The notes beneath the pieces were generated by a model. It did not search any database. It was given only the letters and a program-made list of their open reading frames with translations, and was not told the DNA's origin. A program made the translations under genes and the position numbers. A stretch of 64,000 nt of DNA, from NCBI GenBank assembly GCA_965230295.1, contig OZ246001.1:3264001-3328000 (forward strand), read 5' to 3'. Source of the stretch: Marinicella sp. (GTDB taxonomy: Bacteria; Pseudomonadota; Gammaproteobacteria; Xanthomonadales; Marinicellaceae). Below are positions 17,049 to 43,140 of the stretch, piece by piece (the first letter of the stretch is position 1; each line of letters opens with the position of its first letter).

Positions 17049-17494
17049 GGAAAGCTGCTGAGCAGCCTGATCCGCCGAGCCGGTTAGGCAGCGCAGGTGA
17101 TGAAAGGTTGGCGGTTTCATCGAAGATGAAGAAGCCTGCCTAGAATGCCGTAGCGCGTGAATGAAATCATGGTGGTTTGACGAAGTCAAGAAACCTTATG
17201 TGAATGGCGTTATAGCACAGGTAATGAAAGTTGGGCGGTTTTATCGAAGATAAAGAAGCCCGATTTGAATACCGCAGTGCGTGCGAGGTAGCATGTCATG
17301 TTCGTCTCGGCAGCTACCGCATCGATCCCCAGGACGGGGTGAATGCAGAAAATTGTTGGGAACAATTCCTGCCTGCTATCGCTGCATATTTACATCCATG
17401 TAAGCAGTCGCTTTCACTTTTGTCTGGAACAGACATGCAGTGCGAAGCAACTGCTCAGACCATGAACCAGAATGAAGCCCCAAGAACATTCCTT
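17049..17494 (+). repeat. Structured intergenic repeat element, copy A (446 bp; three hairpin cassettes plus a nested GGA-hairpin insert)
   Basis: Begins GGAAAGCTGCTGAGCAGC and ends CCAAGAACATTCCTT; long near-identical blocks shared with 42605-43140 and (inverted) 20824-21036. Confidence 0.9.
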
Positions 17495-17544
17495 CATAGC
17501 TATTGGCATGTCCTATACCATCAACACAGGCATTCAAGCCATGT

Positions 17545-18357
17545 TCACCATTTTTTTCGAGGCAAAAAATGTTTGTGCTTTTCAGCTTCGTGGGTTTGGT
17601 TGTAGGCTTTGATTTTGCTGTTTTTACCCAACAGGATTTTCATTTGATAAAAAGTCTCTCTCATCAGTACTGCACCACGCGAACTGAACCAGCCTTTGTT
17701 GTAGAGTTTTTTCACGGCTGCCACTGAATCTGGTGATTGTTGACTCATCTCTTCAGCCATAGACTCAGCCATGGCCATCGGGTCGTCGGTTAAATGGGTG
17801 ATGAGTCCGGCGGCTTGTGCCTCTTTGCCATCGATGATTTTTGCCGTCATGGTCAACTCTTTGGCCACATCCATGCGACAATGCTGCCTCAAAGCCAATA
17901 AACCACCCATATCAGGAATCATGCCCCAGCGACCTTCCATGATGGAAAGTGATGCATCAGGCGTGGCAATGCGAACATCTGCACCCAGGGCGATGTGTAA
18001 TCCGCCACCCCAACAACGCCCATGAATCACAGCAATCACCGGTGCGCCTACCTTCTGCCACTGGGTCGAAACTTTCTGAGCTGTGTTGGCCCGCCAAGGG
18101 TTCAGTTTAAACAGCAGCTTCATAGGACTTTTGATTGATTGCATCATTGACTTAACATCCAAACCCGTACAAAAATCTGGACCTTGGCCAGAAATGATCA
18201 CAGCACGGATGCCTCGGTTCTTACTCAAAGCTTTGGCTGTATCAACAATGGCCTCAAACATGGGCATGTCTAAGGCATTGTGTTTATCAGGACGGGCTAA
18301 GCTCACGTAAGCAATGCTGTGTTTGATTTCTACTTCAACTCTCTTGGGTTTGCTCAT
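17545..18357 (-). CDS. Crotonase/enoyl-CoA hydratase family protein
   Basis: RPDKHNAL, FCTGLD, PVIAVIHGRCWGGG and ME.RWG.IPD.GG motifs. Confidence 0.93.
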   Translation of the reverse strand: MSKPKRVEVEIKHSIAYVSLARPDKHNALDMPMFEAIVDTAKALSKNRGIRAVIISGQGPDFCTGLDVKSMMQSIKSPMKLLFKLNPWRANTAQKVSTQWQKVGAPVIAVIHGRCWGGGLHIALGADVRIATPDASLSIMEGRWGMIPDMGGLLALRQHCRMDVAKELTMTAKIIDGKEAQAAGLITHLTDDPMAMAESMAEEMSQQSPDSVAAVKKLYNKGWFSSRGAVLMRETFYQMKILLGKNSKIKAYNQTHEAEKHKHFLPRKKW

Positions 18358-18672
18358 TGATGTGATTTAATGATTCTCAATTAAATCATTACTTTAACCA
18401 AAGTTGGCTTGGGTGTCTAGACAGCAATTTACGACAATCCTGAGTTCTTGATTTCAAATTACATTCACCCTGCCAGTAGCCCATGGAATAATTTTAGTCA
18501 TTCCTCTTAAGTAAATGACAATACTAGTCTGATTTCTATGATGGTATTTGTTAAATGCTTGTGTTAATGATTTCATATTAAATTCTTTAAGTTGATGAAT
18601 ATATTTTCCATTCATTCTCAAGAAATGAGAAACCGTGCGGCCAAGATGTGGTTTTCACAACAGGAATACAGC

Positions 18673-18924
18673 ATGCAACAACTCGTTATTAAACTCAGTC
18701 CGGAAGTGACGCAGGGTTATTTAAGAATGGCTCAAGATCATAAAGACTCTGCCGAAAAACATGAAAAGGGAGTTTCAAACTTTCAACTGGACATCAATAT
18801 GGCCATGGTTGCTGGCTTATGCTTTGCCGACATAGATGTTAATGGGAAAAACATCAATTCGGACTCAGACACTGAGGACCTAGAGGTTCAGTTGATCGAT
18901 TTCAGTCAGGCGACAACCAGATAA
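18673..18924 (+). CDS. hypothetical protein (~83 aa)
   Basis: AGGA RBS before the ATG at 18673; no known motif. Confidence 0.55.
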   Translation: MQQLVIKLSPEVTQGYLRMAQDHKDSAEKHEKGVSNFQLDINMAMVAGLCFADIDVNGKNINSDSDTEDLEVQLIDFSQATTR

Positions 18925-18955
18925 ACCATGATTACAATGACTACAGGAACTCACC

Positions 18956-19246
18956 ATGAAACCAGATTTAAACACCATTCCCAATGACCCAAAGACCACT
19001 GTGCTTTTTGAACAGCAGGGTGTGTTTGATGACATACCTGCTTGTTACCAGGCTTGGCAACACGATGGCATCCGCGGAGAAAGCATTGTTTTTTTGAAAA
19101 AAGATTTGAAAAACCGCAAAGACACCGATTTGATTCACAAAGTCAAAGCATCTAAGTTGGTCAGGTCCAACAGTCAGATCACATTCAGCAGGAACCCACC
19201 TGATTATTTATTCATTAACTTCAACATTCAACTTGACAGTTTATGA
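18956..19246 (+). CDS. hypothetical protein (96 aa)
   Basis: AGGA RBS; protein-like composition; no family recognised. Confidence 0.7.
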   Translation: MKPDLNTIPNDPKTTVLFEQQGVFDDIPACYQAWQHDGIRGESIVFLKKDLKNRKDTDLIHKVKASKLVRSNSQITFSRNPPDYLFINFNIQLDSL

Positions 19247-19317
19247 CCCACATGGAAGTGGGAAATGCTGACAATTGTCAGGAACAATTACAGTGGACCC
19301 GCATGGAGGTGGGAAAT
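19245..19317 (+). repeat. GGA-loop hairpin mini-repeat (about 1.5 copies of a 51-bp unit)
   Basis: CCCAC-ATGGAA-GTGGG, AATTGT-CAGGA-ACAATT and CCCGC-ATGGAG-GTGGG; same architecture as 17324-17372. Confidence 0.75.
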
Positions 19318-19329
19318 ATTGAAGTGCAT

Positions 19330-20484
19330 CTACCGTTCAATCGCTTCAATCACCTTTTTAATCAAGGGGTCCATGGCGTCTCTTTTGATCCATCGAGCCA
19401 CCACCACCAGGTCATGTTCCGGATCAACATGAACCATGTTGGTGCCAGCACCCAGATGGGTGATGCTGCTTGTGGAGGCACTGGGAAGGAATTTTTTGTC
19501 ATCGTTTAGAAACCAGTTCATATACCCATAGGATGTGTTTTGTTCAGTGGGTGTTGTTGCCAGTTCATACCACTCTTTTGAGAAAATCTGCTGGTCTTGC
19601 CATTGGCCTTTTCGTAAAGTCAAATAGCCAAACCTGGCCTGATCATAGGCATTGATAAACATGCCGCCACCCCAATGTCCACCTCCACTGACTGATTGCA
19701 CCTTCAATCCATCAATCATGACCCATGAGTTTTCATAACCATGCCAGCGCCAGGTGTCAGATGCCCCTATGGGATCCATCAAATGTTGTTTCAGCACTTG
19801 TGGTAAAGGGCGACGCCACAATTCCAGTAAGGCCAGAGCAAAGGCATTTACCCTGACATCGTTGTATTTCCATTGGGTACCTGCTTTCGGAACTTCACGA
19901 TCAGGCCATGCAAAAGCATCGTCGCCAACTGGACGGTCACCCCAATCGGGTTTGTCCCATAAACTGCCTTCCCAGGCACTGGTCTGACGCAGCATGTGAT
20001 CCCAGGTGATGGTCTTGTTGTGTTCGGATTTAAAATATTTGCTGTCGATGTAGGTCGAAATCGGTTCATTCAAATCCCTGATTAACTGCTGATCATAGGC
20101 CAACGCGGCAACCGAAGACAGGAAGCTCTTTGAAACACTGTGGGTCATGTCTACTTTGTTTGGTAACCCCCAGACAGCAACAATGTAACCATGACGGAGT
20201 ATGATGCCAGTTTGTTCACCACGAATGGTCGTGGGGCCGATGATTTGATTGTAAGGTTCTCGGGCAAACCCAAGCGCGCTGGCCAAGGCCTGATCACGCG
20301 GTCGATCTGATTCCTGGGCTTGTGCATATCTGACAGCTTGTGCGAGTTTGGCTGCTGAGAACCCCACTTGCTCAGGTGCTTTATGTTGCCATTCTGCGTT
20401 GTTTTTGACTGGGTAATAAGGTTCTTCAGCTTGGCTGATCAGGCTGCCAAATAACATGGTGGCCATTAAAAAGTACTTAAACAT
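19330..20484 (-). CDS. Secreted serine hydrolase (beta-lactamase-like family)
   Basis: Signal peptide; SXXK (HSVSKS); YND; GGAG RBS before the ATG at 20484. Confidence 0.9.
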   Translation of the reverse strand: MFKYFLMATMLFGSLISQAEEPYYPVKNNAEWQHKAPEQVGFSAAKLAQAVRYAQAQESDRPRDQALASALGFAREPYNQIIGPTTIRGEQTGIILRHGYIVAVWGLPNKVDMTHSVSKSFLSSVAALAYDQQLIRDLNEPISTYIDSKYFKSEHNKTITWDHMLRQTSAWEGSLWDKPDWGDRPVGDDAFAWPDREVPKAGTQWKYNDVRVNAFALALLELWRRPLPQVLKQHLMDPIGASDTWRWHGYENSWVMIDGLKVQSVSGGGHWGGGMFINAYDQARFGYLTLRKGQWQDQQIFSKEWYELATTPTEQNTSYGYMNWFLNDDKKFLPSASTSSITHLGAGTNMVHVDPEHDLVVVARWIKRDAMDPLIKKVIEAIER

Positions 20485-20578
20485 CAGTGTGCTCCACATG
20501 AATCAATTGAGTCTTTAAGGAATACTCTAGGGTCTTATGCTTACTGTTCCAGCTCACCCTGTACACTTACATTCATAT

Positions 20579-20778
20579 AGGCGTCATTCAAATTTATTTC
20601 CGACAAATTTGAAAACGACTACAGTCTACGGCATTCATTGATCGCTTCTTTGACTGCGATGAAAACACGCTTGCTTCATCGCCTGACCTGTGAGTATGTC
20701 TTACAATCTCGGGTTTACGCCCTCTGATTCGCTTCGCTCACCAACCGAGTGCGTCGGTTGAGCTGATATCAGCTCTCC
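20579..20778 (-). repeat. Structured intergenic repeat element, diverged copy D
   Basis: Minus strand GGAGAGCTGATATCAGCTCAACC...GGTTGGTGAGCGAAGCGAATCAGAGG...GTCGTTTTCAAATTTGTCGGAAATAAATTTGAATG parallels copy B, with compensatory stem changes. Left boundary approximate. Confidence 0.75.
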
Positions 20779-20823
20779 TAAGTCAGTAAGGTTAATGCAA
20801 AGGCCGCTTAAGTACAATCAAAT

Positions 20824-21036
20824 AAGGAATGTTCTTGGGGCTCCATTCACTTTTGTTCCAGACAAAAGTGAAAACGACCGCGGCGAACATGACATACTAC
20901 CTCGCACGAATGACGCCATTCACATAAGGTTTCTTGACTTCGTCAAATCACCATATGTTCATTGGCTATTCTCTTCGCCTCTGATTCGCAAAGCTCACCA
21001 ACCGGCTCGGCGGGTCAAGCTGCTCAGCAGCTTTCC
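20824..21036 (-). repeat. Structured intergenic repeat element, compact copy B (213 bp, one hairpin cassette)
   Basis: Reverse complement has the same ends and internal blocks as copies A and C. Confidence 0.9.
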
Positions 21037-21048
21037 ATCGACCGAATA

Positions 21049-21096
21049 AGGGTCAGGTATTTGACTTAACATAGGGTCAGGTATTTGATTTAACAT
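21049..21096. repeat. 24-bp tandem duplication covering the gntR 3' end
   Basis: AGGGTCAGGTATTTGACTTAACAT followed by AGGGTCAGGTATTTGATTTAACAT (one mismatch). Confidence 0.9.
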
Positions 21097-21727
21097 CCAG
21101 CCAATTGCATATAACGTCAATACCATGCAAGTTGTTATGGGTCAAGGCGCTGCGAGCTTCTTTGATTTTTCCTTGTTTCAATAAATTAAGGATGTTTTCA
21201 TGTTGTGAACTTGAGTTATTGATGTTTCCGCCGTTCCTAAAAAACATGTTTTCATAACGGTGGGCATCTTCTCTGACGCGAGCAATACAATCCATGAGGT
21301 AATTGTTGTTACATTGAGACAGCAACAACTGGTGCCATTCGTTGTCTAACTCTATGGATTTTTCACCCCTTGATATGGCAAATTTCTTGTTAATTTGTTC
21401 TAGCTTTTTGAATACATCCTCAGGTATTGAAGTTATTGAGGCCAGAGCCGTCTCTTCTAGTTGAGCCAATACAGGGTAAATTTCTCTGACTTTTTTTGAT
21501 GACAGTTCGGTGACAAAAAAGCCACGTCGTGCTTTCGAAAGAACATAACCTTGACCCTCCAAACCCAGCAGGGCTTCACGTATGGGAGTCTGGCTCACCC
21601 CCAATTCTTTGGCAACCGCTGTTTCATTGATTCGTTCACCTGGTGACAGCTCTCCACGCATGATTTTTTCTATCAGGATTTGACGTACTTGGGATCTGGT
21701 AGACATTTGATTAATCATGTCGCTCAT
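21077..21727 (-). CDS. GntR-family transcriptional regulator (FCD domain)
   Basis: GELSPGERINE...LGVSQTPIREAL...LE..G wHTH; FCD His motifs (NEWHQ, QHENI). Confidence 0.95.
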   Translation of the reverse strand: MSDMINQMSTRSQVRQILIEKIMRGELSPGERINETAVAKELGVSQTPIREALLGLEGQGYVLSKARRGFFVTELSSKKVREIYPVLAQLEETALASITSIPEDVFKKLEQINKKFAISRGEKSIELDNEWHQLLLSQCNNNYLMDCIARVREDAHRYENMFFRNGGNINNSSSQHENILNLLKQGKIKEARSALTHNNLHGIDVICNWLDVKSNT

Positions 21728-21756
21728 TATATACGGTTATCACCATTTAAATAAAC

Positions 21757-21794
21757 TTGACTTAATTCTATATTCTATATAATATAGAATTAAG
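21757..21794. promoter_or_regulatory. Putative GntR operator overlapping a sigma70-like promoter
   Basis: Perfect 14-bp inverted repeat CTTAATTCTATATT-N6-AATATAGAATTAAG (21761-21794) overlapping TTGACT and TATAAT/TAATAT, between divergent genes. Confidence 0.75.
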
Positions 21795-21839
21795 TGTTAC
21801 CATTGCACAATAATCCCAATTCAACCGAGTAAGATCACA

Positions 21840-22862
21840 ATGAATAAATTATTCAAGATAATCACCCAACCACCCATCAAGACAGCATGGATGATACTTG
21901 CCGTCATTTATTTGAGTTCTTTAGGAGCAGCACAGGATTTAAAGAAAGCCGATGCTGAAAAAGCCATTGAATACTTGTCAGATTTATTGGCCAGTTACCC
22001 CATAAAATCAGATGCTGTAAAAATGCGACAACTGATCAAGCAGAAGTTAGCCCATGGTGAATACAATGAGCTAGCAAATCGTCAAGCGTTGGCAAAAACA
22101 TTGACAGCGGACTTAAGGTCCATCAGGCATGATTTTCATCTGGGTGTTCAGTATTCTGCAGAGGCATCAACTGCAGACGCAGCGCATAATTTATCTAATC
22201 CAGAGGTGATCAAAAGACTGAAGAAAACCAACTACGGATTTGCAGAAACGCGCATAATGGAAGGCAATGTGGGCTTCCTCAAAATCACTGCATTAAATAC
22301 TCCAGAAGTGGCAAAAGATCAGGCATTGAACGCATTGGGTTTTTTACAACACACAGATGCATTGATCATTGACTTGCGTGGTAACCTGGGTGGTGAACCA
22401 GAGATGGTGCGTTTAATTTCAAGTGCATTTTTTGCGAAGAAAACCCATCTGAATACCTTGCACTATACAGATGGTCGCGATCGTGCTGTTGAAGAAATAT
22501 GGACTGATCCTGATCTGGTTAATGGCATTAATTTGCATGATAAACCGATTTATATTCTGACTAATTTTTATGTGGCTTCTGGAGCGGAAGACCTGGCGTA
22601 TTCATTACAAGCACAAGGCAGGGCAACAATAGTTGGCAAAAAGACTGCAGGAGCTGCTCACCCCGGAACTTCACATTACCTTGAAGAACTGCAACTCAAT
22701 TTCAGTATGCCACATGGTTATGTTGTGAATCCTGTTACCGGTAAAGATTGGGAGGGAACAGGCATTTCTCCTGATGTCAAAAGCAAAGACGCGCATGCAT
22801 TAGACACTGCACTTTCACTGGCATGGCAAGACATTGGTTACACAGCTAGAGATGTTGAGTGA
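21840..22862 (+). CDS. S41 family peptidase (IRBP/tail-specific-protease-like), exported
   Basis: Signal-like N-terminus; GNVGFLKI, IIDLRGNLGG, ASGAE, IVGKKTAG and WEGTGISPDV. Confidence 0.92.
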   Translation: MNKLFKIITQPPIKTAWMILAVIYLSSLGAAQDLKKADAEKAIEYLSDLLASYPIKSDAVKMRQLIKQKLAHGEYNELANRQALAKTLTADLRSIRHDFHLGVQYSAEASTADAAHNLSNPEVIKRLKKTNYGFAETRIMEGNVGFLKITALNTPEVAKDQALNALGFLQHTDALIIDLRGNLGGEPEMVRLISSAFFAKKTHLNTLHYTDGRDRAVEEIWTDPDLVNGINLHDKPIYILTNFYVASGAEDLAYSLQAQGRATIVGKKTAGAAHPGTSHYLEELQLNFSMPHGYVVNPVTGKDWEGTGISPDVKSKDAHALDTALSLAWQDIGYTARDVE

Positions 22863-24361
22863 AAAAAGTTAACTCAGAATCCCATGTAGGGCATCAAGCA
22901 GGCGGATTGACAGATGAATGGCAGAACGCCATAGTTTCTAGTCGTCTGGGTGTATTGGATTTACTGCGTGGTGTGGCTCTTTTGGGTATATTGCTCGCCA
23001 ATGTGCATCAAATGATGATGCCATTTGAGGTAGCCAATCACCCGATAGATTTTACCGGCAACAAAACATTCACTTTCATCGAATGGTTTGCCATCGAAAG
23101 TTTAGTCAGTTCTAAATTCCTTACGCTTTTTTCATTGTTGTTTGGGGTGGGGTTTGCGATTCAAATTGCTGCGTTGAAATCTAGAAATCAAGGGAGGTAC
23201 CGGTCAGTTTACCTGCGCCGGATTGTTGTTTTGGCTGGTATGGGTATCGGGCATGGCCTGTTCTTGTATGGAGCGGATGTGTTGCTATACTATGCAATCA
23301 CAGCGTTTATGCTTTTGTGGTTATGTGAGCTGCGATCAACGACATTGTTAAAGATCGGGTTGATTTTGATTTTGTGTCATTTGCTGCTTGGCTTTGTGTT
23401 GGAATGGAGTTCATCCAAAAAGGCTTTGGTATTATTGTCTGGTGTGATTTTCATTGTTGTGACAGTTGGCTTCTCCCGTAAAAAAATGCAGCAGCTTTTC
23501 CAAAGAGGCATGGTGGCTTTGTTAGTCGTTGTTTTGGCTTATGCATTGTTGGCACCAACAGAAGCAACCAGCACTTCACAATGGCATGAGCTACAAGCAC
23601 TTGCAGAGAATTCCTGGCAAGCTATTGACCATCAAGCTGAAAGTGTTGTTATCGATGGCAGGACCTACGATGTACCACTTGCTGATGAACTTGCACACCG
23701 CTTGTATCAAGGCTCATTGGATAACGCAGATCGCATCACCTTACAAATGACCGGGTTTCGAGATGGCCCTACTTCTTTGGCTCAGTCACTTCGTAAGGAT
23801 CAATTCATACACATCCAAACCATCTTTGTGTTTTTTTATTTTTGGCGTACTTTAGCCATTTTTTTGATTGGCCTGGGTCTGGTTAAATATGGTGTGTTGA
23901 ATAAAAACAACGATCAAGTCATTCGCTCAATTATCAAAATAGGCGGTCTGGGTGGGGTGTTGTTATCTGTTTTTTCCACATACCTCAAAGCGTTGGCGAT
24001 GACCACAGCGACTCAAGTGAATGCATGGGCATTTTTACTCCATGAAATCAGTGTTTACATGCTTGCATCGGCCCTGGTTGCCCTGGTTGTTATGTGGTCA
24101 AAAACCCAGCGATGGATGCGGGTACAAAACACCCTGAAAAACACTGGGCGCATGGCTTTAACCAATTACCTGGCGCAGTCAGCTGTGATGCTGTTTGTTG
24201 CCAGTAGCTTGGGTTTATATGGTATGTTGACAAGGCCTCAACTGGCTGGGTTGGCCATTGTGGTGTTTGTGGTGTTGGCACTCTTGTCCAGCTTGTGGAT
24301 GGTGCGCTTTAAAAGCGGTCCTGTCGAACGTGTTTGGCGTCTGCTGACATACTTCAGATAA
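22859..24361 (+). CDS. DUF418 (YeiB-like) membrane protein
   Basis: LDLLRGVALLGILLAN, KF.TLFSLLFG.G, GRMALTNYL.QS and GPVE.VWR.LTY. Confidence 0.92.
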   Translation: MKKVNSESHVGHQAGGLTDEWQNAIVSSRLGVLDLLRGVALLGILLANVHQMMMPFEVANHPIDFTGNKTFTFIEWFAIESLVSSKFLTLFSLLFGVGFAIQIAALKSRNQGRYRSVYLRRIVVLAGMGIGHGLFLYGADVLLYYAITAFMLLWLCELRSTTLLKIGLILILCHLLLGFVLEWSSSKKALVLLSGVIFIVVTVGFSRKKMQQLFQRGMVALLVVVLAYALLAPTEATSTSQWHELQALAENSWQAIDHQAESVVIDGRTYDVPLADELAHRLYQGSLDNADRITLQMTGFRDGPTSLAQSLRKDQFIHIQTIFVFFYFWRTLAIFLIGLGLVKYGVLNKNNDQVIRSIIKIGGLGGVLLSVFSTYLKALAMTTATQVNAWAFLLHEISVYMLASALVALVVMWSKTQRWMRVQNTLKNTGRMALTNYLAQSAVMLFVASSLGLYGMLTRPQLAGLAIVVFVVLALLSSLWMVRFKSGPVERVWRLLTYFR

Positions 24362-24451
24362 CGTTGTGACAGATTTATTGATGCTTTTATGCCAGGTTGC
24401 ATAACGGTGTTTCAAACTTGGGCGCTGGGTTAAAACAAATTTGTGGCGCCA

Positions 24452-24703
24452 TTATTTAAAATACACCTTGCCTCCAATCATTTTGAAAGCTGGTGTGCCT
24501 CGTACCAGTGTATCCCGAGCAAAAGTTTGTTCACAGCTTGGGCAAACACAAGGAATTCGGGTGAAATCTTTTGCTATGCGTTCCTTGAAACATTTAACCA
24601 AGGTACCTTTGCCACCCTTGCGGTATTTGAACAATTGGGTTTTGCATTGGCTGCAGAAGACATCTACTGTTGCTGTGGGGCCTTTTGTATTGGGTTTCGC
24701 CAT
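24452..24703 (-). CDS. Small putative zinc-binding hypothetical protein
   Basis: CSQC...YRKGGKGTLVKC...CPSC: two CxxC pairs. Confidence 0.75.
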   Translation of the reverse strand: MAKPNTKGPTATVDVFCSQCKTQLFKYRKGGKGTLVKCFKERIAKDFTRIPCVCPSCEQTFARDTLVRGTPAFKMIGGKVYFK

Positions 24704-24838
24704 GTTTCAATGCATTGAAGAGTTGAACACAATAACAGGAATTGGTGGCTGGTTCAATGTTCAACTCCAGATGTAAAAACATTGCCTGTTGGCCTGTGTT
24801 ATTATAATTAACGCAGTAGATATCCAGTTGAGGTCAAC

Positions 24839-25540: not shown

Positions 25541-25562
25541 GAATCGAGCCAGGGTTTTGGGC

Positions 25563-27333: not shown

Positions 27334-27422
27334 ATTGCTTTGTATTAGGCAGTTGAGTGGGCTTTAGTATAGCTGATTTGAACCTGGGATTTGGCTGGAC
27401 TTGTTCAATGAAAGTACTTTAA

Positions 27423-27503
27423 TCGACGAACGATCTGTTTTCGTCGATCAACCAGTGATGCAACCGTTTTAACGGGTTCATGCGCAAAATTTCCCGTTTG
27501 GTC
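27423..27503. promoter_or_regulatory. Possible LytTR-type binding repeats
   Basis: TCGACGAACG and TCGATCAACC at 21-bp spacing, plus CCGTTT boxes, in the divergent intergenic region; resembles the AlgR-type CCGTTCGTC site. Confidence 0.35.
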
Positions 27504-27569
27504 TAGTAATGATCTCACCGGCCTGATTCAAAGAATAAGCTGGGCCCTCATTCAAATACTCAGGAATTA

Positions 27570-32124: not shown

Positions 32125-32173
32125 GGTTAAGATTTTGTGGTTAGCTTGAAAAACTTGTATTCTACCCCAAATC

Positions 32174-32203: not shown

Positions 32204-32221
32204 TTTAATTTTGGAGTTGAT

Positions 32222-36300: not shown

Positions 36301-36417
36301 CCTGCTGCAGTGTCTCTGGTGTTTGGTGAATTATTTGCTACTCCGATCACCTTGATCCTTATTCCTGTGTTGCTCAAGTTTGGTAGATATCAATCAGATC
36401 AAAAAGTGATCAGTTAA
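33331..36417 (+). CDS. RND efflux transporter permease
   Basis: NPVAANLLM, GILVDDAVVVGE, GVVINDSLVL and RLQAIFLTTVTT. Confidence 0.95.
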   Translation: MKAITEWFLDNPVAANLLMVFILIAGYLSFQNLRVESFPQIPPTRLVVEVTYPGGTAKQVDEGITQRIEDAISGVAGIKSINSQSSRGGAIVRVEKNTGIKLDRLIEDVRNQVEGIVGFPENAHRPRIYRDEYGNLATFVIIYGGNDPDTLQTVSGRVQNALKGHKSISHVANLGKRQRELVIEPNTEALKKYGLNAQALANSISQWSLEYRSGQLKTAQGTITLRGDGYADNLSELESLPVIVTNQSIVRLKDVATITRGFRQTDSIVRFQGEQAIALLVSTSQKDNLLKISQAVKQTLKEVRTTLPDDMDAVMMADMAPYINEQLDLLGTNAWQGLLIVMVLLGIFLELKLAFWVALGIPISLAGAVSLMGLGPFDYSINDITLFGMILVLGILVDDAVVVGESIHEARKTTPDPKEAASKGVESVAVATVFGVLTTIAAFSPMLWIENELAKVLAGFSAVVIFALIFSLIESKFILPSHLSSGPRDSKSHLFKTWLLKIRGGCIGGLKKFNQGIYQPTLRVALTHKGASLLLFLTLVLGAYGALMKGNIRSVFFPEIPGRYATLTITMDQDAALSLTQQHVMHLERSLQLTNDHMKEEFGLNEPPVEKYLISVEGAESLELTAELSKQALASIPSEYFLQQWQQQTGPIEGSYAVKYTLADEPAGGTGITIAAENRDVARHVAQILKKQLASLPGVMNVYDDSQSGKRQLQVRLNDRGIQLGVDQQQIATLVGGAYGEIEVHRLLEGGEENLVLLRLPEAQKKTAEQLKATPVFIDKDNYVSLGEITHFEYSREPEVLYRRNRDEVVSVYWRQNRDISSPQETWKIMQANFLPELNQQYPDVKIEAVGEYAEIADVQDGFKKAMILTLLLIYVLLAIPLKSYWQPFIIMSVIPFGFAGAIYGHGVMDLSVSLLSLFGMMAMTGVVINDSLVLMTRFNQLHRSGMEVKEALIEAGKSRLQAIFLTTVTTVCGLLPLLSETSEQAQYLKPAAVSLVFGELFATPITLILIPVLLKFGRYQSDQKVIS

Positions 36418-36535
36418 AGAGGAGCTTGGCATGTTTGCTGCACGAACTGGATTCAAGGTTCAAGCCAGAAGGGAAAGGCTGTAAAGGATTGGCTCAATCC
36501 TCACAGCCTTTTAAAATCATCGAGATTAGTTCAAA

Positions 36536-36721
36536 TTATTCTTTGAATTTAGGGCTTACATACCTTTTCCAAATGATATCACCTTCAGTTTTGTCAAAGC
36601 CTCCTGAATATACACTCCCGTCTCGAGTATCGAGAAGAAATGCTTCAAGTAAATTGGATTCTGGGTTAAGCACAACTGTGAATGAATAGGTACCAATTGC
36701 TTGTTCTTTGTTGCTAGTCAT
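36536..36721 (-). CDS. small hypothetical protein (61 aa)
   Basis: GGGGA RBS before the ATG; protein-like sequence in an AT-rich gap. Confidence 0.5.
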   Translation of the reverse strand: MTSNKEQAIGTYSFTVVLNPESNLLEAFLLDTRDGSVYSGGFDKTEGDIIWKRYVSPKFKE

Positions 36722-37043
36722 TTTCTATTCCCCTAAAAAAGTTCATTAATCGTTAATAATATGGTCAGCAATTCGTTTTTGGCTTATAAATAATTGCCAA
36801 TAACAGGTGCAGGTATATAGATTAATGAACTTAACAAGCGGAATATCTCATTAAAAATATGCTTTTCTACTGATTTTGTTAAAATTCCTGGTTTTCTTTC
36901 CAACCTTTACTCTCCAAGTGGAGAAAATATATGCTTCGCCGTGGTGACTACCGTTGAATTCCTGTTGTTCATGACTCTTGCAGTATTCATGTGCCTTGAT
37001 GGTGATCTGGGTTTGCAGTATCTTGTCTCAGAATGACCTCAGT

Positions 37044-38177
37044 TTATTGTCCCACCAAAGCCAACAACACACCGGCAGCAACCGCAGAACCAAGGACGCC
37101 GGCCACATTGGGCCCCATGGCATGCATTAATAGGTGGTTTCTGGGGTTGGCTTCGGTGCCCAACTTGTTGGCCACACGTGCCGCCATGGGGACGGCAGAA
37201 ACACCCGCAGCGCCAATCAAAGGATTGATGGGGTCTTTGGACAGTTTATTCATGACTTTGGCCATGATGACTCCTGTGGCGGTTCCAATGGAAAAGGCAA
37301 CAATACCAAGTCCCAGAATTCCTAAGGTCTCCAAATTCAGAAATTGATCAGCGCTGAGTTTTGAACCAACGCCCAATCCTAAAAATATGGTCACAATATT
37401 GATCAACTCATTCTGGGCGGTCTTATTCAATCGCTCAACCACACCAGCTTCACGCATCAGATTGCCTAAACAAAACATCCCGATCAATGGTGTGGCTGCG
37501 GGTAGGAAGAAAATGGTTAGCAGCAGTACGCCCAATGGGAAGATGACTTTCTCTACTTTGGTCACATGCCGCAATTGGACCATTTCAGTTTTGCGTTCTT
37601 GTTCATTGGTCAGTGCGCGCATGATGGGTGGCTGAATAATGGGTACCAAGGCCATGTATGAATAGGCCGCCACTGCAATGGCGCCGAGTAAATCCGGTGC
37701 CAGTTTTGATGCCAGGAAGATGGCGGTTGGTCCATCGGCACCACCAATGATGGCAATGGCAGCGGCATCCTGGATGCTGAACTCTATGCCTGGTACAGCA
37801 TTCAAGGCAATGGCACCAAATAAGGTAGAGAAAATACCAAACTGAGCAGCCGCACCCAATAACAGCATTTTGGGATTGGCAATCAAAGCGCCGAAATCTG
37901 TCATGGCACCGACACCCATAAAGATCAACAAGGGAAATATGCCCGTATCAATGCCGGCATAGTAGATGTAATGCAACAACCCGCCGGCTTCAGTGAAACC
38001 TGCCAATGGAATGTTGGTCAGTAATGCACCAAAACCAATGGGCAACAAGAGCAGTGGTTCGAATTTCTTAACAATGGCTAAAAACAGTAGGCCAAAACCC
38101 ACCACCATCATCACCACCTGGCCCCATTCGAAATTGGCCAAGCCTGTAGATTGCCACAGTGTATTCAAGGTTTCCAT
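37044..38177 (-). CDS. oadB: Na+-translocating oxaloacetate decarboxylase beta subunit
   Basis: [29 protein letters not shown] and [11 protein letters not shown]. Confidence 0.97.
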
Positions 38178-38183
38178 GACTGC

Positions 38184-39965
38184 TTATCCAAAGCTCACTA
38201 AGGCATCACCCACTTTGACATTGTCACCGTTTTTGATGTGAATGGCTGATACGGTTCCAGTGACGGTGGAGACCACTTCGGTTTCCATTTTCATGGCTTC
38301 CAGGACAATCAACACATCGCCTTCATTGACTGAATCACCGACATTGATGTTGATTTTAAAGATGTTGCCGGACAAGGGCGCATCCAATGTTTCACCCGAT
38401 GGAGCTGTTGGTGCAGCGGGCGTTTCTTGCACCTGAGTGATGACACCTGAGGGAGCCACTTGCACTTCATAGACTTTGCCATCAACTGTAACCGAGTAGC
38501 TTTCAATGGTCTGGTTGGCAGTGGGCGTGGTCTGAGGCGAGGAGGCAGGTGCTTGACTCGCAGCCTGCGGGGCTGGTTCAAAAGCCTCTTTGTTGTGACG
38601 ATTTTTAAGGAATTTCAATCCAATTTGGGGGAACAGCGCATAAGTTAAAACATCATCAATGACCTCATCTGCCAAGTCGATGTTTTCTTTTTTGGCCAGT
38701 TCAATAAGCTCTTGGGTCAATGAGTCGACTTCTGGTTCAAGGAGATCAGCAGGTCGGCATGTGATGGCTTCAGCACCCTCTAATACCTTGGCCTGCAGTT
38801 CTTGATTGACTTCAGCAGCGGTGGCGCCGTATTCGCCTTTAAGTACGCCAGCAGTTTCTTTGGTGATGCTCTTATAACGTTCGCCGGTCAAAACATTCAA
38901 CACTGCTTGGGTGCCGACTATCTGCGAGGTTGGGGTGACCAATGGTATATAGCCCAAGTCTTTCCTGACTTTGGGAATTTCAGTCAACACATCATTGAGT
39001 TTGTCTGCGGCCCCTTGTTCTTTGAGCTGGTTTTCCATATTGGTCAGCATGCCACCAGGTACTTGGGCGGTCAGTATCCGGGCATCGATGCCTTTCAGGC
39101 TGCCTTCAAATTGGGCGTATTTTTTGCGTACTTGGCGAAAGTAAGTGGCGACTTCTTCCAATTTTTGTAGGTCTATCCCGGTATCACGGGGCGTGTCTTC
39201 CACAATCGACACAATGGTTTCAGTGGCTGAATGGCCATAGGTCATGCTCATGGATGAGATGGCGGTGTCAATCACGTCAATATCGGCATCAATGGCTTTC
39301 ATGTGAGTGGCCACACTCAGCCCTGTGGTGGCATGGCAGTGTAAAGAGATAGGAATGTCTATGGATTTTTTTAACTCAGTGATCAGTTCAGTGGCGGCAT
39401 AAGGTTTCAGCAGGCCGGCCATGTCTTTGATGCATAAGGAGTCTGAACCCATGTCTTCCAATTGCTTAGCCATGGTTAACCAGCCAGCCAAATCGTGCAC
39501 TGGGCTGACGGTGTAGCTTAAAGTGCCTTGTGCGTGTCCGCCCACCTTATTGGCGGCCTTGATGGCTGATTGCATGTTGCGAACATCATTCATGGCATCA
39601 AAGATGCGAAACACCTCAACCCCATTTTTGTAGGATCGTTCGACAAATTTTTCCACCAAGTCATCGGCATAATGTCGATAGCCCAGTATGTTTTGTCCAC
39701 GGAACAGCATTTGCTGCTTGGTTTTGGGCATCACTTTCTTCAATTCACGGATGCGTTCCCATGGGTCTTCGCCTAAATAGCGAATGCATGAGTCAAACAC
39801 CGCACCACCCCAGGATTCAATCGACCAAAAACCAACCTCGTCAAGCACCGGTGCAATCGGCAACATATCTTCTATGCGCATTCTGGTGGCCAGTAAAGAC
39901 TGATGAGCATCTCTTAAGACCAATTCTGTGATACCAAGGGCTTTAGATTGAGGAGATTCTGACAT
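38184..39965 (-). CDS. oadA: Oxaloacetate decarboxylase alpha subunit
   Basis: [34 protein letters not shown] and biotin site EAMKM; start at 39965. Confidence 0.97.
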
Positions 39966-39987
39966 GGTGTGTTTTCCTGTATTGAGA

Positions 39988-40236
39988 TTATTGCTGGTGG
40001 GTCTGTCGGTATTTGTTGACCGCAACACTGATGGCTGCGATCACTGCTGAAGATGGGTTGTTTGTTTCTGTTTGGGCAGGTGGTGTTGGATCGGGGAAGT
40101 GTCTGGCCAGTGGTGAAATCAACACCTTTATCACCAAAATCAGTAGACTCAAGAATGCAAACACAAAACCCATGCCAACCATCATCAGTACAGCAGCCTG
40201 TGAAAACAGTTCAGTTGAAGCCTCTATTTCTGTCAT
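39988..40236 (-). CDS. oadG: Oxaloacetate decarboxylase gamma subunit
   Basis: [15 protein letters not shown], Pro-rich linker, VIAAISVAV; directly upstream of oadA. Confidence 0.93.
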
Positions 40237-40364
40237 AAAATAATTATAGTTATCAGCAGATTAGTAGATTATTTTCATATTTGGCCTTAAAAGCAATGAT
40301 TAATCTGATTATTTTGTGTTTAGAACCCATTCGTTGGGTCACTGGGTGATGAAACTAAAGACAA

Positions 40365-40384
40365 AGGGCCTGTAAGCAGGCCCT
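40365..40384 (-). terminator. Probable intrinsic terminator of the protease gene
   Basis: AGGGCCTG-N4-CAGGCCCT followed by TTGTCTTT on the minus strand. Confidence 0.6.
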
Positions 40385-40411
40385 GGATGATGTATGCCAG
40401 AAAACTTTCAA

Positions 40412-42439
40412 TTATGGACTGTTGCCATCAAATCCGTCTTTAAAGATGGGGCATTCTGGTGGGGTATTGGGTTCTGACACCAAAATGACATCATCTATGG
40501 CTGCTTCAATGATGCTGCCATTGTTGGTATCTTGGGCAATGAAACGGATTTGAAATTGATTGGTGTTGTTGACAAAGTTTGCCACACGAAATTCTTGATA
40601 AACCCATTCTGCAGCTACACCATTGCTGATGGTTTCTACGGTGGTCCAGTTGCCACCTGCATTGTCAGAGACCTGAACCACGAACGTATCATCGCTGTTG
40701 CCGTTATCACCCCACCAGCGCCAGTATGATATGTGTGCTTCGGTACTGCTGGCATCTAAGATGGGTGAAACCAAACGGGTCGCACCGCCATCAACGTCAG
40801 TATTACCGGCAGCATTACCCGTGACATAAGCTGACCCTGATGAATCTGCATCCCATGGTGGGTCTTGTCTGCGACCAAAACCAGCAGGTACGCCTCGTTC
40901 CCAGGATCCGGCGGTTAAACTGGGATCATCATCAACAGTCCATCCCTGATCAGTCTCGAAGGTGTCTCTGAATGTGTCATTGAATGAATTACCCACTCGC
41001 CTGATGAAACGCCTGTTGGCAGAGTTATCTGCGGTAAACGGGTGATGAACAATGCCACCACTGAGGGTTTCCACATCGATTTTAAAGGTCACTTCACTGG
41101 CACAGGCTGAAGCAGGTAGAGTGGCTTCATAGGTGGCTGCTGCTACTGGTGATAACGGAATGGTTACATCACCATTGCCATAATCATAAATCAAGCTGGC
41201 TGAGTTGAAACTGGCCGGTAAGTTATCACGATCAAGGATGTCAACCTGGAAGCTGGTTCCTGACGTAGGTATATCCTGTGCAATGGGTGTAACTTGTTCG
41301 ATCCGAATCTGAGGTGGACCATTGAGGCAAATGCCAATGGGGTTAGCCAGGGCATTGAGTAATCCTGTATTGGCCAATGAAGTGCCATTATTGGCACCGC
41401 CACCAGCAGAACAGCCCGCATTGGTGTGAATACCAATCGCAGTTCCTGTTCCTTCAACTTCGACTGCAGACCCTGAATTACCACCTGTGGTATCAACCGT
41501 GTATTGTAAAGAGGTACCCGATACACCTGTCAGCTCACCGGTGTGTGTGGTTTGTGTTTGGCTCCAGTCTTGCGGAGTCCCTTGGGTACCATCGATCGTG
41601 CCATAGCCGGTGATCCGTATGGTCTCTCCTCCCGGAGTAGCAGGAGGGGCGGCTAAAATAAAGTTGTTGCCTTGCGCTTCAAAAGGTGTCAATCGGGTTT
41701 GGCTGTTGGGAAATGCACCAAAATAAGCCCAGTCATTACCAATACCAGTTAAATCCCATTGCACCGAGCTGAAATCAATGGGGTATTGATTATCTGGAGA
41801 TGCGTGGTTGGTGGATCCATTGGGGTTAGACAAAGGCACATCAAACTCAACCACACTGGCAGCCGCATCGAGGTTACCTTGGGCGTCTTCTACGCAGTGT
41901 CCGGCAGTCAGAAAGCAGCCCTGAACATCGTCAATCAGCCAAGCTGTACACCCAATAGGCATGATGCGAGCCGTCCTTGCATCTGACGCCAGTGTGCGAT
42001 CATCATCAGCACCACAGATTGAACGTGAGTTATCAGTGGGCGGGCTTCCCACTTCACCCACACTGATTTCATCGATTCTGATCCTGGCTGTGTTGCCTGG
42101 ATCACTCAGTAACTCAATTTTGACTGCATCACCGTTGAAATAGGCACTGGTGTTGCGCCACTCTTGTAAGGTTTCGGCATCATGGGTTTGAACAGCGCCA
42201 TCCAACAATGAGGTGATCCTTATGGAAGAAGTTTGACCTAAAACTGCCGTTGAAAAATGTAAGCGAATCCAAGTGGCACCGTCTACTTTAATCTCCTCAT
42301 CAAAAATAACTGCATGTTCTGTACCGAAGTTTTTGACTACCCCAGAGTCCACTTCAATGTCCACCAATCTTGAGGGCAATGGGTTCTTAGCGAATACGCT
42401 TGATGACACCATCAAACAGGTCAAAATGATCAATTTCAT
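40412..42439 (-). CDS. Secreted trypsin-like (S1) serine protease with N-terminal and C-terminal accessory domains
   Basis: Signal peptide; catalytic TAGHC, NDW and GGNSGS; ends IFKDGFDGNSP. Confidence 0.9.
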   Translation of the reverse strand: MKLIILTCLMVSSSVFAKNPLPSRLVDIEVDSGVVKNFGTEHAVIFDEEIKVDGATWIRLHFSTAVLGQTSSIRITSLLDGAVQTHDAETLQEWRNTSAYFNGDAVKIELLSDPGNTARIRIDEISVGEVGSPPTDNSRSICGADDDRTLASDARTARIMPIGCTAWLIDDVQGCFLTAGHCVEDAQGNLDAAASVVEFDVPLSNPNGSTNHASPDNQYPIDFSSVQWDLTGIGNDWAYFGAFPNSQTRLTPFEAQGNNFILAAPPATPGGETIRITGYGTIDGTQGTPQDWSQTQTTHTGELTGVSGTSLQYTVDTTGGNSGSAVEVEGTGTAIGIHTNAGCSAGGGANNGTSLANTGLLNALANPIGICLNGPPQIRIEQVTPIAQDIPTSGTSFQVDILDRDNLPASFNSASLIYDYGNGDVTIPLSPVAAATYEATLPASACASEVTFKIDVETLSGGIVHHPFTADNSANRRFIRRVGNSFNDTFRDTFETDQGWTVDDDPSLTAGSWERGVPAGFGRRQDPPWDADSSGSAYVTGNAAGNTDVDGGATRLVSPILDASSTEAHISYWRWWGDNGNSDDTFVVQVSDNAGGNWTTVETISNGVAAEWVYQEFRVANFVNNTNQFQIRFIAQDTNNGSIIEAAIDDVILVSEPNTPPECPIFKDGFDGNSP

Positions 42440-42604
42440 TGGCTTATTCCTCTTTAACTGTTGTTATATTTTTGTATCAGCAAGACATCCTACATCAATC
42501 TGGCTACATTCCCAATTAATAATCATCTTCTGAATAAAAATAACACTGATCTATTACAAATGAACTTGTAGTGACTGATACTTAATCGATGTTTGATGTG
42601 ATCA

Positions 42605-43140
42605 GGAAAGCTGCTGAGCAGCTTGACCCGCCGAGCCGGTTAGGCAAATCATGCAATCATGGCGATTTTGCAAAGCAAAGAAGCCTTGATGTAATGATTG
42701 ATTAGCCGTGAGCTTTTGTTATAGCGGCCGCTATCACTCCTAGCTATCGCGGCAGACCTACATCCATGTAGTCACCTCTGATACCGGCATCCTGCCTCCT
42801 CAGAGGACTTACTTCCATGTAAGCCAATCAGAGGCGAAGAGAATAGCCAATGAACATGTGGCGATTTGACGAAGTCAAGAAGCCTTATGTGAATGGCGTT
42901 ATAGCACAGGCAATGAAAGTTGGGCGGTTTTATCGAAGATAAAGAAGCCCGATTTGAATGCCGCAGTGCGTGCGAGGTAGCAAGTCATGTTCGCCGTGGT
43001 CGTTTTCACTTTTGTCTGGAACAGACATGCAGTGCGAAGCAACTGCTCAGACAATAGTCTGTAAAGGTCGGTTTATTTGCGCAGCAAATATGAAGACCTG
43101 TCAGACCATGAACCAGAATGAAGACCCAAGAACATTCCTT
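42605..43140 (+). repeat. Structured intergenic repeat element, copy C (536 bp; four hairpin cassettes plus a nested GGA-hairpin block)
   Basis: Same termini as copies A and B; long near-identical blocks shared with both. Confidence 0.9.

Follow-up and report, generated by a model that had tools for sequence, protein, structure and literature searches.

Small interspersed repeats are common in bacteria, and for most of them we know of neither a mobilising enzyme nor a role of the secondary structure. The ERIC/IRU repeats are intergenic and about 127 bp long, each a single imperfect palindrome, with longer and shorter variants arising through internal insertions or deletions at fixed sites. 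The pneumococcal BOX elements (boxA–boxB(n)–boxC) are composite, highly base-paired intergenic repeats of 67–637 bp, in which the variable module folds largely independently of the ends; they are described as having terminal inverted repeats and target-site duplications and no transposase of their own, an IS transposase being proposed as the mobiliser (PMC3049150). Members of the IS200/IS605 family and their miniature derivatives lack terminal inverted repeats and target-site duplications, carry subterminal hairpins on one strand, have a 5' end that abuts a short target in the flank, and follow a single-strand logic coupled to replication (PMC5027513). The REP/BIME and REPIN-RAYT systems, finally, are abundant intergenic structured repeats that are sometimes clustered or in tandem (PMC3333891, PMC6006769).

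The element described here was found in a 64,000-nucleotide stretch of a Marinicella genome, hereafter the window. It is like BOX in its fixed end modules and variable internal content, a likeness of architecture only, and differs from BOX in lacking terminal inverted repeats and target-site duplications, in expanding at four separate sites and not through a single tandem array, in its covariation-supported and non-palindromic core, and in showing no sequence similarity. With ERIC/IRU it has in common that intergenic repeats occur in longer and shorter variants, whereas its core folds into two domains with long-range helices, and here too sequence similarity is nil. Like IS200/IS605 it has no terminal inverted repeats or target-site duplications and has hairpins on one strand; of a short target next to the 5' end, the flank conserves only a C at -4, and this in 46 of 61 copies. 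Unlike that family, it occurs mostly in genomes where no Y1 transposase or TnpB was found, has a target of only C-N3, is structured throughout instead of at two end hairpins, and, in the lineages that show a strand bias, has its folding strand on the leading-strand template, where the active strand of IS200/IS605 lies on the lagging-strand template. REPs, in turn, are 20–40-nt palindromes flanking their own RAYT gene, which this element does not flank.

Copies in the window and across the order

The window holds four copies, with features as follows.

17049..17494, + strand: copy A, 446 bp, in which the core is joined by hairpin modules at the P3 site, site 2, site 3 and, in part, the P6 site; same orientation as the leading strand; TATG in the left flank, C absent at -4
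20517..20778, - strand: copy B', a diverged subfamily member placed by the covariance model (68.8 bits), 45 bp downstream of B and on the same strand, starting GGAGAGCTGATATCAGCTC and ending ...TATTCCTT; left flank CTTA, C present at -4
20824..21036, - strand: copy B, 213 bp, made up of the 149-nt core and a single 64-nt hairpin module; anti-leading; top model score in the window, 119.6 bits
20908..20971, within copy B: its hairpin module, element positions 66–129
20824..20827, - strand: copy B's own 3'-terminal tetranucleotide, CCTT
21037..21040, - strand: left-flank target tetranucleotide of copy B, CGAT; its C, at -4 from the junction, lies at window base 21040
42605..43140, + strand: copy C, 536 bp, the 633-bp form without its 97-nt domain at site 3; same orientation as the leading strand; ATCA in the left flank, C absent at -4

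A first, sequence-only reading of the window had described A, B and C as intergenic copies with common ends, differing in length by whole modules, with a diverged fourth copy in tandem with B and with neither a target-site duplication nor a transposase. This description was borne out: the 5' end was as it had given it, the 3' end read ...CCAAGAACATTCCTT in all three, entire internal segments were present or absent between copies, the fourth copy was B', all four were intergenic, no target-site duplication was found, and none of the seven flanking ORFs that were scanned against Pfam was a transposase. The boundaries of A and B are further supported by contigs from public DNA runs, which break exactly at 17494/17497 and at 21036; with contigs terminating at element boundaries, the family disrupts short-read assemblies of Marinicella. 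Spurious ORFs are also created by the element.

A BLAST search with copy B returned 119 matches in the genome from which the window comes (G000; 4.0 Mb, a single contig, 97.9% complete), and nhmmer matches clustered into 119 loci. The 5'-end motif matched 62 times, and 61 of these matches had a partner 3' end no more than 1 kb away, giving 61 complete copies of 149–633 bp, every one of them intergenic. Such repetition of ends and copies is far beyond chance. The 14 copies of 149 bp were mutually 91–100% identical, and the coding DNA of congeners was at most 78% identical in the single 7.5-kb stretch compared. When 151 genomes of the order were searched with the covariance model, the family was found in 15, belonging to four genera, with sequence conservation spanning two families; among congeners, copy number ranged from none detected to more than 100, and each lineage had its own dominant near-identical subfamily. 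Searching Rfam with the whole window at gathering scores gave no match, and at E<=1 the loci with the 633-nt and 149-nt forms gave nothing relevant, the sole match being snoZ165 (E=0.57; 24 bits, where the cut-off is 90), located outside the element. Known repeat families thus do not account for it, in line with the first reading, which could not match it to a named family.

Relatives also provided evidence of movement. Among 40 filled sites in these genomes, 23 were syntenic with G000, and 18 of those were empty in G000. Two of the 23 were common to both, with the same spacer and orientation and with a diverged or fragmentary copy in G000, and a third spacer held an element fragment in matching orientation; old copies thus decay. 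The copies and empty sites together support what had been proposed from the window, a non-autonomous mobile element whose ends are fixed and whose hairpin modules are optional, and we consider that the family probably consists of small non-autonomous mobile DNA elements, folding on one strand.

Fold, modules and the choice between DNA and RNA

The fold was derived from an alignment of 68 copies from nine genomes. In the 149-nt core, RNAalifold gave six helices with 38 pairs, 28 of them with compensatory changes; 97.0% of cells were paired as compared to 86.1% in shuffles, the covariation score was 0.336 as compared to 0.138 in shuffles and was equalled by none of 500 shuffles, and slid controls were 35–39% paired. 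The structural model thereby passed the covariation analysis, although not in the shape first drawn. A single closed multibranched fold had been suggested, with the flanks extending a GGAA/TTCC stem, whereas the fold supported by covariation consists of two domains side by side. P1 is the 5' hairpin, and P2 is a long-range helix around the P3 hairpin, which contains tandem G.A pairs and two invariant G.T wobbles; in the second domain, P4 (ATGTTC pairing with GAACAT) encloses P5 and the P6 hairpin, and after this domain comes a single-stranded tail with the terminal CCTT. GC-rich copies from another family of the order retain the fold. The end-to-end pairs G1-C, G2-C and A3-T were paired in 53, 55 and 43 of 65 distinct sequences, with no compensatory change at any of them and A.A in 18, and in the 61 copies no left- and right-flank positions were complementary above background. 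As for which strand folds, G.U cells outnumbered A.C cells by 169 to 24, or by 43 to 24 without the two invariant wobbles, and it is likely that the sequence of the element has been shaped by a need of one strand (GGAAAG...) to fold alone.

What the longer forms have in addition is hairpin domains at four sites, in loops or at junctions, all of which are occupied in the 633-bp form. Most architecture differences are indels bounded by short direct repeats (CCATGTA, TCAGAC, GCTATCGC and GGYGATTT), and the variants therefore look like deletions. From the window alone, cassettes had been thought to be both gained and lost; the junctions look like those of losses, by slippage between short direct repeats, and are not gain-like. 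The minimal active unit is probably the 149-nt core, with intermediate sizes being deletion or recombination derivatives that would themselves have been copied to new sites.

These features must be weighed against the alternative that the copies are transcribed structured RNAs, either a multi-copy sRNA or a cis-acting stabiliser or processor of mRNA, with helices kept for RNA function. The strong covariation and the excess of G.U over A.C would be expected of such a family, as would the tandem sheared G.A internal loops found in the core and in every optional module, the GGA in several hairpin loops, and unpaired motifs (GGTTGG, AATCAGAG and GAATGAAG.CCCAAG) that vary little or not at all between genera; a functional RNA, too, would have tandem G.A pairs, invariant wobbles and conserved unpaired motifs. 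However, orientation was not linked to genes: the upstream gene had the same sense in 34 of 61 cases, and both neighbours had the same sense as the element at 16 of 61 sites and the opposite sense at 18, which is near random. No consensus promoter was found inside copies A or B, the sole terminator-like site in copy A was weak and on the antisense strand, and Rfam had no match. With syntenic sites mostly empty and shared old copies fragmentary, single copies are evidently not maintained. The loops, moreover, are of a DNA type. Loops of 3 nt dominate the 633-bp form (8 of 15 loops when folded as RNA, 12 of 19 when folded as DNA), and the P3 tip was GCGAAGC, GCGTAGC or GCGATAGC in 34 of 68 copies, GCGNAGC and GCGNNAGC being 'mini-hairpin DNA' motifs (PMC13037366). 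The transcribed RNA family, which had been left as an alternative from the window alone, is therefore less likely than a mobile DNA element given its gene-independent orientation, the lack of a consensus promoter in A and B and the decay of old copies, and we regard it as unlikely.

Junctions, orientation and candidate enzymes

At the left junction, flank position -4 was a C in 46 of the 61 G000 copies, as compared to a background of 22% (p=1e-18). The same was seen in relatives, in 39 of 48 copies, and in all nine G033 copies that start with the P1 hairpin. It is a one-base signal, and 15 of the 61 lack it, copies A and C of the window among them. The element itself ends in CCTT in 55 of 61 copies, and the C at -4 from the right junction was invariant in all 68 aligned copies, and is so in three genera. 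Left and right flanks of the 61 copies showed no identity above background that would indicate a target-site duplication, and terminal inverted repeats were absent, the ends having only GGA/TCC in common. A classical MITE mobilised by a DDE transposase was rejected on both counts.

Orientation followed replication in some lineages. In G000, 46 of 61 copies were anti-leading (p=9e-5), including 21 of 21 canonical 149- and 633-bp forms as compared to 25 of 40 odd sizes (Fisher p=0.001), so that all 15 co-leading copies were odd-sized variants; in G021, 12 of 14 copies were anti-leading. In both genomes the folding strand is thus mostly the leading-strand template. Three relatives, judged by local GC skew, had no strand bias (anti-leading in 4/9 copies in G001, 4/9 in G002 and 6/13 in G023), and the bias is therefore not an obligatory property of insertion.

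Replication-tied orientation in two genomes could also be expected if the repeat served its host as a chromosomal DNA element, such as a preferred site for topoisomerase I or a nucleoid protein or a polar replication signal, copied by recombination and not by transposition. Motif conservation across genera, and over two families, could reflect such a function, and topoisomerase I has this same C-N3 signature (PMC3467081). Against this stand the variation in copy number among congeners, the three genomes without bias, the decay of old copies, and the near-identical subfamilies dominating each lineage, as with transposable elements; we find a host-serving role improbable.

Another route would be that of REP/BIME-type repeats (REPINs) spread by a RAYT, or of a miniature IS200/IS605 derivative mobilised in trans by a Y1 HUH transposase. 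Subterminal hairpins without terminal inverted repeats or target-site duplication would agree with this, as would the link between orientation and replication seen in two genomes. A tetranucleotide position is, moreover, conserved in the 5' flank alone, as it is in IS608 (PMC5027513). G000 does encode one Y1_Tnp (RAYT) protein, at 1669261–1669824, but this gene is flanked by a different REP, with GGA(A/G)CG-hairpin repeats (GGAGCG plus hairpin), and the nearest copy of the element is about 10 kb away. An orthologue was present in only three of 23 congeners (G023, G003 and G012), and in G003 no match to the element was obtained by BLAST or the covariance model; conversely, no Y1_Tnp was found in four of the five element-rich genomes (G019, G021, G016 and G033, with completeness of 94, 99, 89 and 89%), and no TnpB gene was found. 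The polarity of the strand bias is also opposite to that of IS608 (PMC5027513). The earlier suggestion of an HUH/RAYT route is accordingly not supported, in that the sole Y1 gene neighbours another repeat and RAYT and element do not co-occur, and we hold this explanation to be very unlikely. Retroelements (group II intron or retron) were rejected on the lack of an RVT_1 match in G000, as were IS110/IS1111 or IS91 derivatives, with no match there to the DEDD transposase domain PF01548 or to PF04986 (IS91 Y2), the latter matching one of 24 genomes of the genus.

Returning to a mobile element that folds on one strand, we propose that it may move as single-stranded DNA, being cut and rejoined at two C-N-N-N| sites, one the target beside the 5' end and the other the element's own 3' end. 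The logic would be that of IS200/IS605 'peel and paste', with the enzyme acting in trans and not being a Y1 transposase of these genomes. On single-stranded DNA, bacterial topoisomerase I favours scissile bonds that have a cytosine 4 nt to their 5' side, and it leaves a 5'-phosphotyrosine and a free 3'-OH (PMC3467081), and both element junctions match such C-N-N-N| sites. Judging from this signature, host topoisomerase I is a candidate enzyme. Each genome has one gene for a type IA topoisomerase, with the motif ARRALDYLVGF identical in genomes with and without the element. In what we take to be its alignment to the E. coli enzyme, this motif keeps the residue aligned with R169, and not those aligned with R173 and Y177. 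Numbering of these residues is that of PMC3467081.

The boldest reading, which we advance as a long shot, is that of a single-stranded DNA transposon with no transposase, borrowing instead TopA, the one type IA topoisomerase of its host. Both C-N-N-N| sites would be presented by the fold and cleaved by TopA, and the 5'-phosphotyrosine and 3'-OH ends would be rejoined crosswise, giving an excised single-stranded circle with the junction CCTT|GGAAAG that could be pasted in on the 3' side of C-N3 wherever this is exposed in A/T-rich single-stranded DNA. This would explain the lack of target-site duplication and terminal inverted repeats, the absence of a co-occurring transposase, the invariant C near the 3' end and the DNA-type mini-hairpins. 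Excision-competent copies might, furthermore, leave the lagging-strand template and accumulate on the leading-strand template, which would fit with all canonical copies being anti-leading and all co-leading copies being odd-sized. In a literature search we found no mobile element using a type IA topoisomerase as recombinase.

Among bacterial interspersed repeats, this family is an unusually clean case, with covariation behind its complex fold, some 100 recent copies in one complete genome, precise ends, relatives with and without the element, and a one-base junction signature that is common to both ends and conserved across genera. If that signature does come from the host's topoisomerase I, the family would be the first case of a mobile element with no need for a recombinase of its own, and an essential enzyme would be a new source of genome change; if not, the family would still be a well-defined substrate leading toward a new single-strand DNA recombinase.

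Three copies of one folded intergenic repeat family, here termed the element, had been proposed for the window by the sequence-only reading, and copies A, B and C were indeed found with the coordinates, strands and sizes listed here, having a common 37-nt 5' end and 25-nt 3' end. A suspected diverged fourth copy near B was also recovered, placed by a covariance model 45 bp downstream of B.

Copies of the element in the window
17049-17494, + strand: copy A, 446 bp
20824-21036, - strand: copy B, 213 bp
20517-20778, - strand: diverged copy B', placed by the covariance model
42605-43140, + strand: copy C, 536 bp

All four lay between ORFs, among ordinary genes (acyltransferase, enoyl-CoA hydratase, GntR regulator, beta-lactamase-fold protein and peptidase), one of which encodes a protein 82% identical to that of Marinicella meishanensis. 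Copy C was adjoined by a 1651-aa ORF (44084-49039, +) and by a trypsin-like peptidase of 675 aa that carries a MAM domain (40412-42439, -).

Census, architecture and distribution of the family

The window's own genome, G000, is a single contig of 4,008,074 bp with 44% G+C, the window occupying bases 3,264,001-3,328,000. BLASTN of the 213-bp copy B against G000, as the sequence-only reading had suggested, gave 119 matches. The 5'-end motif, with up to six mismatches allowed in 37 positions, occurred 62 times, in 61 cases with the 3' end no more than 1 kb further on, and a profile search returned 143-161 matches at about 119 loci, including diverged subfamilies, fragments and one tandem array. 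All 61 complete copies were intergenic; four copies apparently inside ORFs were discounted, these ORFs being spurious and made by the element's own open frame. That single frame (peptide RKAAEQLDPPSRLVS...) yields spurious ORFs of 60-120 aa upon simple ORF calling, 11 of which clustered together as a false protein family.

Spurious ORFs made by the element
Window 20795-21049, + strand
Window 42958-43164, + strand
G000 1541359-1541700, and others

The copies fell into discrete sizes, with 14 of 149 bp and seven of 633 bp, together with recurrent intermediates of 236 bp (n=6), 356 and 420 bp (n=3 each) and 215, 269, 300, 453 and 485 bp (n=2 each). When compared with a 633-bp copy, the shorter copies always retained five skeleton segments and lacked at least one of four internal blocks, the 149-bp form being the skeleton alone, in agreement with the proposal of fixed ends with optional internal modules. 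In pairwise architecture alignments, blocks were bounded by the direct repeats CCATGTA (51 nt), TCAGAC (54 nt) or GCTATCGC (13 and 14 nt), and a 199-nt block was bounded by GGYGATTT, a repeat contained in two homologous modules; blocks of 97, 87 and 64 nt had no bounding direct repeat in these alignments. The repeat-bounded blocks are apparent marks of slippage or unequal recombination, i.e. of loss. The possibility that the modules are nested insertions carrying their own junction signature (a C followed by any three bases, C-N3) was rejected, since direct repeats at the junctions are typical of slippage. Each architecture was found at several unrelated loci, which implies that variants rarely arise and are then copied.

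One variant lacking the 5' hairpin of the fold, P1, formed a tandem array outside the window.

G000:C1:1312994-1313525 (L156:107-630): head-to-tail array of the P1-less variant, 4.3 x 122 bp

Similar P1-less arrays were seen in G015 (loci L195 and L196, of which L196 directly follows the 3' end of a tRNA), and probably also in G008. Confinement to arrays seems to be typical of the forms without P1, and dispersal of those with it.

BLAST with a 149-nt copy detected the family in one of 17 genomes from outside the genus; within it, 18 of the 23 other genomes were positive. Out of 151 genomes sampled across the order, 15 had matches to the covariance model of the element, R1. These were 11 of 12 sampled congeners, a sister genus (seven weak matches without P1), G033 from another family (with 17 matches) and, elsewhere, a single weak match; 60 other genera within that sample gave no match. 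The G033 copies have 55-63% G+C, their helices being kept by compensatory changes and their unpaired motifs also retained. The dominant subfamily differed by lineage, being GGAAAG...CATTCCTT in G000 and GGAGTG...CACACCTT in G001, G002, G014 and G016. A pattern search of metagenomes returned 10 contigs as candidate carriers, and no match was found in plasmids, phages or viral contigs. Comparison with Rfam gave no match, consistent with the earlier failure to assign a named family, and the best-ranked Marinicella literature, going by titles and abstract openings, concerned community, taxonomy and ecology, with none on repeats.

A covarying fold and its interpretation as DNA or RNA

For the core we aligned 68 copies, comprising 19 from G000 (12 of them diverged) and 49 from eight congeners. 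RNAalifold predicted six helices with 38 pairs, 28 of which displayed compensatory changes. P1 is a hairpin at the 5' end; P2 is a two-part long-range helix around P3; the P3 hairpin contains a tandem G.A internal loop and two near-invariant wobble pairs (U.G in 64 and G.U in 62 of 65 distinct sequences). In P4, ATGTTC pairs with GAACAT near the 3' end, enclosing P5 and the P6 hairpin, and the last five bases, TCCTT, form an unpaired tail. Standard pairs made up 97.0% of 2,463 cells vs 86.1% in shuffles, and the covariation score was 0.336 vs 0.138; for all five measures used, none of 500 shuffles reached the observed value, and the structural model thereby withstood the covariation check. With the partners slid by 1-3 columns, 35-39% of cells were paired and the covariation score fell to 0.04-0.07. 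The extra domains of longer copies occupy four expansion sites, namely the P3 tip, the P2 internal loop, the junction after the P4 5' strand and the P6 tip, and thus leave the core undisturbed. One structural proposal did not hold: a closing stem between the two ends, lengthened by the flanks, lacked both covariation support and flank complementarity, the flanks not extending such a stem in general.

A conserved fold of this kind could be that of a transcribed structured RNA, an explanation that we consider unlikely. Using crude longest-ORF gene calls, the upstream gene had the same sense as the element for 34 of 61 copies, with 18 copies in convergent and nine in divergent contexts, 16 with both neighbours in the same sense and 18 with both opposite, so that orientation relative to neighbours was close to random. 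Copies A and B contained no sigma-70-like promoter and a single terminator-like site, weak and on the antisense strand of A. The loops also speak against an RNA: most hairpin loops are of 3 nt (C-GAA-G, C-AAA-G, C-GCA-G or C-TGA-G), and at the P3 tip the sequence is GCGAAGC in 21, GCGTAGC in seven and GCGATAGC in six of 68 copies. GCGNAGC and GCGNNAGC are known as "extraordinarily stable mini-hairpin DNA" motifs (PMC13037366), and d(GNA) triloops are described as highly stable in DNA with an influence of the closing pair (PMC3201870). We therefore read the fold as selected in single-stranded DNA. The folding strand is the GGAAAG strand, because G.U cells outnumbered A.C cells by 169 vs 24, or by 43 vs 24 with the two invariant wobbles left out.

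Junctions and candidate enzymes

Comparison of the flanks of the copies showed neither target duplication, as had been noted for the window, nor complementarity between flanks. Instead, 46 of 61 copies had a cytosine at position -4 relative to the 5' junction, where 22% would be expected (p=1e-18), followed by A/T-rich bases, and 43 of 61 had a T at +3 past the 3' junction. The left-flank cytosine was also present in 39 of 48 congener copies, seven of 14 diverged G000 copies and all nine P1-starting G033 copies. At the other end, the last four bases of the element were CCTT in 55 of 61 copies, and the first of these four positions, at -4 relative to the 3' junction, was always C in the 68 aligned copies; G033 copies end in CCGA and sister-genus variants in CCTT, CTAT, CCCT, CTTT or CATT, i.e. 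C plus any three bases. Both joins thus have the form C-N-N-N immediately before the junction. The mechanism that we consider most likely would be one in which a trans-acting enzyme cuts and rejoins a single strand at the two C-N3 sites.

Only one Y1_Tnp gene was found in G000, a 187-aa ORF with HUH motif HVH resembling RAYT, the REP-associated Y1 transposase.

G000:C1:1669261-1669824 (L041:1300-1863): RAYT-like Y1 gene, outside the window

The possibility, raised earlier, of a Y1/RAYT gene flanked by the element was not borne out, as this sole gene is flanked by its own REP hairpins (GGA(A/G)CG and then a TTCAG-loop hairpin) and has an orthologue in only three of 23 congeners, one of which lacks any element match; the Y1 family was not found in four of five element-rich genomes. 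These REPs constitute a separate, smaller repeat family, and a REP of the same type precedes the tandem array at 1312900. A search of G000 for RVT_1, the IS110 DEDD domain and TnpB was negative, and an IS91-type Y2 was matched in one of 24 genomes of the genus. Clustering of the 585 crude ORFs that lay no more than 2.5 kb from any of the 119 loci revealed no nuclease or recombinase family, only large paralogue families and element-made ORFs. One clustered family, of 13 proteins, would be putative two-component systems as suggested by two sizes and adjacent pairing. Six members of a family of about 900 aa adjoin element copies, and in three cases there is also a paralogous neighbour of 170-200 aa; with a gene family so large, the adjacency may have arisen by chance.

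G000 near 1139330, 1525791, 2030055, 2290358, 3160905 and 3451688: copies beside the ~900-aa paralogues

After cleavage by a type IA enzyme, the 3' end is a free hydroxyl and the 5' end a phosphotyrosine, which is the polarity of HUH transposases as well. A C four bases 5' of the scissile phosphate marks the single-stranded DNA sites that are cut selectively by bacterial and archaeal topoisomerase I and by reverse gyrase (PMC3467081). The boldest reading that the data allow, a long shot in our view, is that the host topoisomerase I (TopA) would be the mobilizing enzyme.

G000:C1:1820949-1823357 (L201:772-3180), - strand: type IA topoisomerase locus, outside the window

There was one type IA topoisomerase per genome, with extra matches being split contigs or contamination, and no additional paralogue tracked element presence. 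Ten of the 11 genomes checked in the order had ARRALDYLVGF in the cytosine-pocket region, and G031 had ARRALDHLVGF; co-adaptation of TopA to the element found no support, as this motif was the same with or without the element. In alignment with the E. coli enzyme, the R169-equivalent arginine is presumably kept in the 11 genomes, and the equivalents of R173 and Y177 would be Y (H in one genome) and F.

Replication orientation, turnover and the overall reading

The origin of G000 was placed at about 1.71 Mb (cumulative GC skew minimum; dnaA at 1.722 Mb) and the terminus near 3.82 Mb. The folding strand was opposite to the leading strand (anti-leading) in 46 of 61 copies (p=9e-5) and in 80 of all 119 loci (p=2e-4), including 14/14 of the 149-bp and 7/7 of the 633-bp copies, with the 15 co-leading copies all being odd-sized variants (Fisher p=0.001). 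Recent inversions were rejected as the origin of these 15, local GC skew agreeing with the replichore for 61/61 copies at 50 kb. In five congeners, analyzed by GC skew sign in 20-kb windows, the bias recurred in G021 (12/14 anti-leading), with G014 at 2/2, and was absent in G001 (4/9), G002 (4/9) and G023 (6/13); it is thus real in G000 but lineage-specific. In the biased genomes, it is the leading-strand template that carries the folding strand. This polarity is the reverse of that of IS608, in which the active strand is directed to the lagging-strand template (PMC5027513). Possibly, excision-competent copies would quit the lagging-strand template and pile up where they are seldom single-stranded.

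The 149-bp copies were mutually 91-100% identical within G000. In the one stretch compared, coding DNA of all 23 congeners was at most 78% identical to that of G000, and translated synteny was therefore used in place of exact empty sites. Of 40 element sites from five congeners, 23 had both flanks syntenic in G000, and 18 of these intervals were without element there. Two spacers held a G000 copy in the same orientation as that of the relative (one a 3' fragment, the other a diverged tandem pair), and a third held a fragment in the relative's orientation beside a canonical copy in the opposite orientation. In one clean case, the element separated two genes whose spacing in G000 is 12 bp, with CAAT at the junction in both genomes. 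Such decay of old insertions and appearance of new ones is the behaviour of a transposable family.

With regards to known systems, pneumococcal BOX elements are closest in architecture (PMC3049150) and IS200/IS605 in transposition logic, but the element did not pass the tests that define either, nor those of REPIN-RAYT and classical MITEs. Of the earlier interpretation, the non-autonomous mobile element with modules was supported, and the kinship to REPIN/RAYT was not. The reading as mobile single-stranded DNA, taken as a whole, is one that we regard as reasonably probable. Within window positions 14000-24000, contigs from three public DNA runs ended at element boundaries, and over the copies the summed contig depth climbed from about 18 to 260-540. 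We conclude that the element represents a genuine family of mobile DNA repeats, not described before, which are modular, strongly folded and non-autonomous and which break up short-read assemblies of Marinicella.
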